Sequence record: PQ863255.1
Strand: one strand, 5' to 3'
From: Escherichia phage Ptacy1532
DNA: 64,000 nt
The notes under the pieces are model-generated. The model ran no database searches, was not told the origin of the DNA, and worked only from the letters and a program-made list of their open reading frames with translations. Every line of letters starts with the position of its first letter. Position 1 is the stretch's first letter. The position numbers and the translations under genes were made by a program. Shown here piece by piece: positions 17,592-18,763 of this stretch.

Positions 17592-18232
17592 GTAATCAAT
17601 CCTTGAAACTCTTCTTTATTGAAATGCTTCTCTACCACATACTCATACAGATCTTTTAACTCCGCATAACGACGGTAGAAAGTTCCGTGTGACATTCCAA
17701 TAGTCTTCTGAATGTGGTCATGTGGGATTCCCAAGAAGATCATTGAGAACATATTGGCTAACTTCTGAGTATCCATCGTATCACTTAAATCTTGGAAGAA
17801 ATAGAAGATACGAGACTCCATGAATGGGTCACCAACAGAATCTTGCTTATCCATAGCAATCTCTAAAGGACTATCCACCATATCTGGAGTACGGAACATA
17901 TCAGCCTCTGGAATAGAGTAGATACGACGGTCCCCCACAGTCTGCCTATTTGAACGTATAGACCAGATAATATTCTTGACTCGATAAGTCATATGCTCTT
18001 GGTCTTTCTCATCCTCTAGGACTCTCTCATCCTGCTTAGCGAAGACAAATCTCCAAGCATTCAAGAGCACTTCCTGTGCCACATCTTCTGCTTCATGATA
18101 ATCCCTGATATCATACATGAAGAACTTGTGAACCACTTTCCAGTTCACTTTATAAAACTCTTCATAGTTTGAGATATATTTAATAGGGATTCCATGAATG
18201 CGATATCTTGTAGGTGTTGTCTTCTTCGCCAT
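17588..18232 (-). CDS. ECF-type sigma factor-like protein (phage-encoded)
   Basis: Region-2-like [22 protein letters not shown] and region-4-like [25 protein letters not shown]. Confidence 0.55.
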
Positions 18233-18492
18233 TATTCTATTCCACGCTCTTTCAGAGCTTCTAACAATCCGTTGTGATTAGCAGCACATTCTGTGTACTG
18301 GTCCTGATACCACTCCAACGTAGTGGCTAGTGCCTTTCCTTGAGCACTCTCTAAAAGAGGTAGGTCAACCCTACATTCAGCTTTTAGGTTTGTTGGTAAG
18401 GGCATTGATTGCCTGCTGTTGTCGCTCGTTGAACAAGCTGACATACTCATCACTAGCGCAGACATTATAAAAAACTGGTTTAGTTTTCTCAT
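18232..18492 (-). CDS. putative o-spanin (Rz1-like outer-membrane lipoprotein), overlapping the i-spanin in another frame
   Basis: Track ORF 18232..18591 trimmed to [20 protein letters not shown]: signal peptide with lipobox-like MSAC, Pro-containing mature part with extra Cys. Confidence 0.4.
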
Positions 18493-18727
18493 AATGCATC
18501 TCTTTATAAACAGTTTCCGTGTTCTTCTTCCAGTTAGATAAACCGGTAAGAACTCTCTGAGCAACTTCATCAGCTGCCCTACTTCTTTCAATCTCTAACT
18601 CTTGTTGATGCTTTTCTTTATCCAGATTGTTACTGTCTGTTCTGTACTCATTAAACTTCATGCCACCAAAGAATACAAGAGCTGAAAAGATAACAAATCC
18701 TAGATTATCACTTAAAGTGCTTTGCAT
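18377..18727 (-). CDS. putative i-spanin (Rz-like; N-terminal TM helix plus charged helical periplasmic domain)
   Basis: Track ORF 18377..18751 trimmed to the ATG with GGAG RBS (the upstream codons translate the terminator T-tract); TM segment LGFVIFSALVFFGG. Confidence 0.4.
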   Translation of the reverse strand: MQSTLSDNLGFVIFSALVFFGGMKFNEYRTDSNNLDKEKHQQELEIERSRAADEVAQRVLTGLSNWKKNTETVYKEMHYEKTKPVFYNVCASDEYVSLFNERQQQAINALTNKPKS

Positions 18728-18737
18728 ATTGACTCCA

Positions 18738-18763
18738 ACGAAAAAAGCCACCCGGAGGTGGCT
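18738..18763 (-). terminator. Rho-independent terminator between the HNH gene and the spanin pair
   Basis: On the minus strand GCCACC-TCCG-GGTGGC followed by TTTTTT. Confidence 0.5.

Follow-up and report, generated by a model that had tools for sequence, protein, structure and literature searches.

A predicted two-component spanin of the overlapped class upstream of the sigma-factor gene of Escherichia phage Ptacy1532

Introduction

The spanins of phiEco32-like phages have been listed in SpaninDB since 2018, and their i-spanin is already labelled in RefSeq. In the SpaninDB entries used here (the coordinate table for phiEco32 and the rows of NJ01, KBNP1711 and ECBP2), the pairs of phiEco32, NJ01, ECBP2 and KBNP1711 are entered as 'ovl', with a 116-bp overlap, proteins of 116 and 86 amino acids (aa), a 19-aa signal and two periplasmic Cys residues in the o-spanin; the phiEco32 genes are placed at 35417..35768 and 35272..35533 on the minus strand (Kongari 2018, PMC6139136). 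The i-spanins belong to the family 'JH2', common with FelixO1-like phages, and the o-spanins to the family 'NJ01' (PMC6139136). In this study, the corresponding locus of Escherichia phage Ptacy1532 was analysed in a stretch of 64,000 nucleotides (nt) of record PQ863255.1, hereafter called the window. All positions are those of the window unless another record is named.

The Ptacy1532 locus carries the same gene pair as these four phages, with the same lengths and 116-bp overlap, on the minus strand and upstream of the sigma-factor gene. Its o-spanin is 98.8% identical to that of phiEco32 (one residue differs) and 97.7% identical to that of NJ01 (two residues differ). The spanins differ from those of the four phages by strain-level substitutions only, and Ptacy1532 has in addition an HNH gene just upstream. 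The locus was assigned to the two-component spanins of the overlapped class, with a probability of roughly 0.9. The pair was already known, having been catalogued in 2018, and biologically little is added to that record.

The predicted spanin gene pair

The features of the locus are collected in Table 1. Conservation was assessed in 13 loci, including nine kuravirus loci, a deeper relative (L010), Shigella phage Sf14 and Pectobacterium phage Wc4; the DNA of the spanin pair was aligned for the nine kuravirus loci and L010 (49% and 55% amino-acid identity).

Both open reading frames (ORFs) that the initial annotation had proposed as i-spanin and o-spanin genes were recovered at the same coordinates, on the minus strand and in different frames. 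The o-spanin gene is in the +1 frame relative to the i-spanin gene; its first 116 nt lie within that gene and the remaining 145 nt beyond the i-spanin stop codon. The pair is therefore of the 'overlapped' class, and 'embedded', the word used in the heading of the initial annotation, is a misnomer. The reading of the two genes as a spanin pair was upheld by the PHROG 1152 match of the i-spanin, by homologues in the Ounavirinae and by the presence of the same pair in SpaninDB. Homologues of 18727..18377 carry the RefSeq label 'Rz-like spanin' in NC_070991 and NC_027395, and the o-spanin weakly matches PHROG 456 'Rz-like spanin' (E=1.3e-3). When the o-spanin was used as tblastn query, 388 phage records were matched, 290 of them at <60% identity; the latter were mostly FelixO1-like, with matches over genes annotated as o-spanin and i-spanin. 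The distant matches (28-37% identity) aligned from residue 1 and fell on Ounavirinae genes annotated as o-spanin/i-spanin pairs. Pairwise comparison with Shigella phage Sf14 gave E=3e-12 for the o-spanin and E=5e-11 for the i-spanin.

The product of 18377..18727, described initially as transmembrane (TM)-anchored, charged and helical, was found to have a single TM segment, LGFVIFSALVFFGGM, with a 15-residue Kyte-Doolittle mean of 2.23, the highest in the protein. Helices were predicted at residues 4-28, 36-76, 79-91 and 93-111 in a single-sequence AlphaFold2 (AF2) model, with low to moderate confidence (low for 4-28); the AF2 models (pLDDT 59-61) were used for secondary structure only. In the phiEco32 entry of the supplementary secondary-structure table, 54 of 88 periplasmic residues of the i-spanin are given, apparently as helix (Kongari 2018, PMC6139136). 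The single Cys of the Ptacy1532 protein, C90, lies in the C-terminal domain and is invariant in the 13 loci, which is consistent with a periplasmic location. GTG 18751 was rejected as an alternative i-spanin start, as it is part of the terminator stem and ATG 18727 is preceded, at a distance of 5 nt, by GGAG.

The initial description of 18232..18492 as a lipoprotein-like ORF with a signal ending in MSAC was also sound. The N-terminus of the o-spanin has a basic n-region (starting MRK), a hydrophobic core and the lipobox MSAC, with Ser at +2 (no Lol-avoidance Asp), and the lipobox passes both the PROSITE PS51257-type core pattern and the Kongari rule [ILMFTV][^REKD][GAS]C. All 13 loci, also those of Sf14 and Wc4 at 33-37% identity, retain the start codon, the lipobox Cys, a +2 residue other than Asp, the Cys motif of the i-spanin and the C-terminal Cys of the o-spanin, the lipobox occurring as MSAC, LSAC, MSSC, LMAC, MSGC or ISAC. 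For near-identical homologues, results on the o-spanin signal have been published with LipoP (SpaninDB) and SignalP 6.0 (PMC13417854). In the latter paper, of 2026, the lysis proteins were analysed with DeepTMHMM and SignalP 6.0, and an N-terminal transmembrane domain (TMD) and a lipobox are given for kuravirus ORFs 35/36. Beyond Cys20, the o-spanin contains C40 and C69; a flexible linker and a C-terminal helix (residues 50-82) were predicted from the single sequence at low confidence. A six-frame scan of the 64 kb for the lipoprotein-signal pattern returned four ORFs (two of them with two starts, giving six start-codon matches), and only 18492..18232 adjoins a TM-protein gene.

The overlap carries both reading frames in its conservation. 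Across the nine kuravirus loci, the i-spanin-only segment had variable-site fractions of 0.28, 0.17 and 0.62 at codon positions 1, 2 and 3 of the i frame (0.36 for the whole segment), and the o-spanin-only segment, read in the o frame, had 0.38, 0.08 and 0.71 (0.39 for the whole). In the 116-nt overlap the fraction was 0.17, about half that of the single-frame segments. The order of codon positions in the i-only and o-only segments, each in its own frame, was 3 >> 1 > 2 (10 kuravirus-type loci). This pattern shows that both frames are coding and under purifying selection, and that the overlap is doubly constrained. Position 3 of the i frame, equivalent to position 2 of the o frame, takes most of the changes inside the overlap; the C-terminal motif of the i-spanin would therefore be the more constrained of the two, and the signal peptide appears to tolerate hydrophobic swaps.

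Table 1. Coordinates of the spanin locus and of other features considered in the analysis
Feature	Position	Strand	Evidence and remarks
i-spanin gene	18377..18727	minus	116 aa; homologue of phiEco32 phi32_39; PHROG 1152 'Rz-like spanin', E=3.9e-37
i-spanin transmembrane segment LGFVIFSALVFFGGM	18659..18703	minus	Residues 9-23; sole hydrophobic stretch, remainder charged
i-spanin Shine-Dalgarno GGAG	18733..18736	minus	5 nt before ATG 18727; kept in 9 kuravirus loci; listed as Shine-Dalgarno in SpaninDB
o-spanin gene	18232..18492	minus	86-aa precursor, 67-aa mature lipoprotein (predicted); PHROG 2425 (unannotated), E=3.5e-27
o-spanin lipoprotein signal	18433..18492	minus	Signal peptide residues 1-19; lipobox MSAC 18444..18433; lipidation Cys20 18435..18433 (predicted)
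Dual-coding overlap, 116 nt	18377..18492	minus	Frame 0, i-spanin C-terminal Cys motif; frame +1, o-spanin signal peptide
Sigma-factor gene, ECF-type	17588..18232	minus	phiEco32 gp36 homologue; PHROG 1740, E=5.5e-45; note in NC_070991: identical to phiEco32 sigma factor
Terminator-like hairpin AGCCACC-TCCG-GGTGGCT + T run	18741..18763	minus	Terminator scan; RNA fold -17.6 kcal/mol, z=-3.4; terminator annotated in NC_070991
HNH homing-endonuclease gene	18786..19199	minus	Free-standing, accessory insertion; PF13392, E=4.6e-13, and NUMOD4
gp36-type middle-promoter motif TAATGTATA	20015..20023	minus	Exact match upstream of gene-40 homologue; nearest upstream phage promoter motif
SLT transglycosylase ORF	5693..6475	plus	260 aa; PF01464, E=1.3e-24; PHROG 12507; among virion/injection genes
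SleB-like ORF	55820..56209	minus	PF07486 Hydrolase_2, 32.2 bits (cut-off 27); PHROG 12974; early region; distinct from true endolysin
Holin	NC_070991 13239..13457	plus	PHROG 11161, E=2e-48; late operon, off-window
Endolysin	NC_070991 13487..13978	plus	PF00959 phage lysozyme, E=9e-32; late operon, off-window

Related records and location of the other lysis genes

Megablast with the region 17500..19300 matched 98 phage records, all of them from phiEco32-type phages (Kuravirus, Gordonclarkvirinae) of Escherichia or Shigella, the closest being vB_EcoP_WFI101126 (99.8% identity). Ptacy1532 is a Kuravirus, a podophage of this type. In a comparison of the whole window with the complete relative NC_070991 (96-99% identical), window positions 1..63475 corresponded to 14223..77088 and 63516..64000 to 2..486. 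By this correspondence, the window wraps around the genome end and lacks about 13.7 kb (NC_070991 487..14222). The first 195 nt of NC_070991 are an inverted copy of its last 195 nt, and window positions 63516..63710 match both 2..196 and 77306..77112. Such inverted ends are unusual, since phages of this type are reported to carry short direct terminal repeats, and they could be an artefact of the assembly.

The initial annotation had seen no holin or endolysin gene next to the pair and had concluded that either the lysis genes are dispersed or one of the calls is wrong. The first option proved correct and the spanin call was retained: a search beyond the window located both genes in NC_070991, among plus-strand late morphogenesis genes, with the spanin genes on the minus strand (32505..33000). 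The position that corresponds to window position 1 (14223) is 245 bp past the end of the endolysin gene, and the holin and endolysin genes therefore lie outside the window, about 18.5 kb from the spanin genes and on the opposite strand. The placement of kuravirus holin and endolysin genes among late morphogenesis genes is noted in the Privateer paper too. NC_070991 has no contiguous holin-endolysin-spanin cassette. The T4 genes pseT.3/pseT.2 lie away from t and e (Kongari 2018, Fig. 8 legend, PMC6139136); on this analogy, adjacency to holin and endolysin genes is not to be taken as a defining spanin feature. Their absence next to the pair should not count against the spanin call, the other lysis genes being in a different temporal operon just outside the window.

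The kuravirus 'holin' (72 aa) has only one hydrophobic segment, at its N-terminus, which was predicted in the 2026 paper as a signal peptide and not as a TMD (PMC13417854). The holin status of this protein is uncertain.

The SleB-like ORF had been named as the only wall hydrolase candidate in the window. The SleB match in the early region is real (PF07486), but the SLT transglycosylase ORF at 5693..6475 is present as well; its product probably serves in entry, as a peptidoglycan hydrolase carried in the virion.

Proposed mode of action

The proposed mechanism is modelled on the lambda and T4 systems as outlined in Kongari 2018, and would operate as follows. The 116-aa i-spanin would be held in the inner membrane by its N-terminal helix, with the helical C-terminal domain in the periplasm, and the 86-aa o-spanin would be exported, lipidated on Cys20 and cut by signal peptidase II. 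With Ser in place of Asp at +2, the o-spanin would be expected to be sorted by Lol to the inner leaflet of the outer membrane. The periplasmic domains of the two proteins would bind each other, giving periplasm-spanning complexes threaded through the peptidoglycan; homotypic disulfides, formed by C90 of the i-spanin and by C40 and C69 of the o-spanin, would probably stabilise them. These complexes would be inert until the holin and endolysin, encoded in the distant late operon, destroy the peptidoglycan; once freed, they would undergo a conformational change by which the inner and outer membranes are fused or disrupted, and lysis would be complete. The spanin genes lie in the middle-gene cluster, directly upstream of the sigma-factor gene, which makes it likely that the proteins are produced ahead of the late holin and endolysin.

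Neighbouring genes, transcription and accessory insertions

The placement of the pair between an HNH gene and a sigma-factor gene agreed with the domain matches (PF13392 at 19199..18786; PHROG 1740 at 18232..17588). The o-spanin stop codon and the sigma-factor ATG share one base (TAATG) at the 18232 junction. At this same o-spanin/sigma junction, a macro-domain (Appr-1-p processing) gene is found in SU10-type phages and is absent from Ptacy1532, and an ORF of 74-75 aa is found in TH34, Bas86 and L010.

The temporal class of the spanin genes was taken from the SU10 paper and a 2025 NAR paper. In SU10, coding sequences CDS25-68, which include the spanins and the sigma factor, were assigned to the middle class by homology with phiEco32 (PMC4281155), and one of three middle promoters with the gp36 motif tAATGTATAtA lies between CDS37 and CDS38 (PMC4281155; motif also in PMC12276001).

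The hairpin at 18763..18741 lies between the gp36-type motif at 20015..20023 and the spanin genes, with 4 nt separating its end from the i-spanin Shine-Dalgarno sequence, and all nine kuravirus loci retain it. It could attenuate the spanin and sigma-factor genes at the level of transcription or translation. In the minimum-free-energy fold, the Shine-Dalgarno GGAG is paired with an upstream CUCC.

Sigma-70-like hexamers (ATGAGA-17 nt-TATAAT, 10/12 matches) occur on the minus strand inside the overlap, at 18464..18492, with the -35 element on the o-spanin ATG; a transcript starting from them would omit the o-spanin start and keep the sigma-factor gene. They were left as an unproven consensus match: 15 promoter-like sites were counted in the region, against 15.3 expected from shuffled sequences.

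Accessory genes have been inserted repeatedly at the spanin locus, which makes it an insertion hot spot. The HNH gene at 18786..19199 was found in 8/98 matching records, which represent five phages. In Bas86 (locus L011, PQ850622, 2010..2560), Bas87, SU7 and PAS59, an HNH cassette of about 545 nt lies inside the i-spanin/o-spanin overlap. It contains a recoded replacement 3' end of the i-spanin gene, an HNH ORF and a new o-spanin signal peptide and lipobox, MLTKKKQKSCLVILLASSLMAC (…LLASSLMAC), which overlap the 3' end of the HNH ORF, and it converts the pair from overlapped to separated. GenBank presents the cassette-split i-spanin gene as a two-piece join, like an intron. T5 and Shivani offer an analogous case (Kongari 2018, PMC6139136).

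These observations leave room for an extended interpretation, which we put forward tentatively and consider rather doubtful: the expression of the spanins as middle genes, in a single unit with the sigma-factor gene, may be deliberate, and the overlap may be a homing-endonuclease target, with Bas86, Bas87, SU7 and PAS59 caught in the conversion from overlapped to separated genes. If so, the hairpin could throttle read-through from the gp36/sigma-70 middle promoter near 20015, and spanin complexes would already be in place in the envelope long before the holin and endolysin of the late phase appear.

Alternative explanations

Several points weigh against the assignment of the pair as a spanin. 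The genes belong to a middle and not a late transcription unit and stand directly behind a terminator-like hairpin. The o-spanin lipobox fails the strictest rule ([LVI] at -3), since its -3 residue is Met. The N-terminal flank of the i-spanin TM segment is net negative and the C-terminal flank roughly neutral, so that the positive-inside rule gives no clear prediction of an N-in/C-out orientation; the negative flank is also flagged in the curators' remarks of the SpaninDB entries used. No significant match was found when both proteins were scanned against Pfam (E<=0.1) and NCBIfam. This indicates that neither protein is a sequence relative of lambda Rz or Rz1, and does not speak against a spanin as such. 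A literature search returned no experimental report on the JH2/NJ01 spanin family, and the function, outer-membrane disruption, is predicted from topology signals and from homology to other spanins that are themselves predicted.

Some of these points would suit a different role for the same two proteins, namely a genuine inner-membrane protein and an outer-membrane lipoprotein acting on the envelope in mid-infection without lysis, for example in superinfection exclusion or receptor masking, roles played by some phage lipoproteins: in the middle cluster the two genes have sigma-factor and DNA-metabolism genes as neighbours and are a long way from those for holin and endolysin, the literature search yielded no experiment on the family, and Pfam and NCBIfam gave no spanin match. 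We consider such a role improbable. An overlapped TM-protein and lipoprotein gene pair with conserved periplasmic Cys residues in both products is the arrangement seen in spanins (Kongari 2018), the Ounavirinae homologues lie beside or near an endolysin gene, and T4 shows that unlinked spanin genes are normal. Moreover, no other spanin candidate was obtained in the scan of the 64-kb window or is annotated in the complete relative NC_070991, and the phage would otherwise be without a spanin.

A second alternative concerns the o-spanin start codon. In most GenBank/RefSeq kuravirus records the o-spanin is called only at 18232..18405 (174 nt, 57 aa), as 'hypothetical protein' or 'O-spanin' and without a signal peptide. 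The idea that only this 57-aa ORF from ATG 18405 is real, as a small cytoplasmic protein, and that the upstream lipoprotein signal is a chance by-product of i-spanin coding, draws on those records and on the weak Shine-Dalgarno complementarity before ATG 18492 (AAGAG/GAG), but is hardly tenable, since the ATG, the n-h-c signal and the lipobox Cys stand at the aligned position in relatives at 28-55% identity (L010, Sf14 and Wc4) whose nucleotide sequence has fully diverged, and since the HNH-split phages have acquired a new o-spanin signal peptide and lipobox, which makes sense only if the signal is required. The 57-aa version is regarded as a start-codon error because none of the loci compared lacks the upstream ATG, signal peptide or lipobox Cys. 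Gene callers are known to truncate overlapped o-spanin genes systematically (Kongari 2018, PMC6139136), and in the SpaninDB entries used the curators record that the o-spanin start was moved upstream to obtain a LipoP match. The RefSeq o-spanin of Sf14 (locus L013, 3001..3267) is likewise annotated from an internal start at 3073, with loss of the signal peptide that begins at 3001. The practical value of the two-component spanin assignment lies in annotation: the internal ATG used in most kuravirus records and in RefSeq Sf14 leaves a 57-64-aa 'hypothetical protein' without a lipoprotein signal.

Comparison with known spanin systems

The spanins of FelixO1-like phages (Ounavirinae), such as Sf14 gp047/gp046 and those of Wc4, are homologous to the Ptacy1532 pair (about 30-37% identity, E=1e-9 to 1e-15) and have the same overlapped layout. 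The i-spanin Cys motif NxC…(Y/V)…(L/V)FNE(R/Q), the o-spanin lipobox and the C-terminal (E/I)C motif of the o-spanin are conserved between the two groups. The Ounavirinae differ in being myophages and in having one periplasmic o-spanin Cys, whereas two are present here. Their spanin pair is also found near an endolysin or lysozyme-like gene: in Wc4 it follows the endolysin gene directly, and in Sf14 a lysozyme-like gene lies two genes upstream. In SpaninDB, the i-spanins are in one family and the o-spanins in separate ones (JH2 for the FelixO1-like phages, NJ01 here).

The spanin pair of phage P2 is part of a contiguous lysis cassette. P2 LysB/LysC, the prototype of the overlapped class, has the same layout as the Ptacy1532 pair, the o-spanin gene beginning within the i-spanin gene, in a different frame, and running past its end (Kongari 2018). 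No sequence similarity between the two pairs was detectable, and they are in separate SpaninDB families.

In T4, the spanin genes PseT.3/PseT.2 are unlinked to the holin and endolysin genes, as they are here (Kongari 2018, Fig. 8 legend). The T4 genes differ in their separated architecture, no sequence similarity was detected, and the T4 i-spanin has no periplasmic Cys.

Lambda Rz/Rz1 shares the proposed mechanism and topology, with a type II inner-membrane protein and an outer-membrane lipoprotein that form disulfide-linked homodimers (Kongari 2018). The lambda genes differ in being embedded, Rz1 lying wholly within Rz, and whereas Rz1 is short and proline-rich, the o-spanin of Ptacy1532 is longer and has a predicted C-terminal helix.

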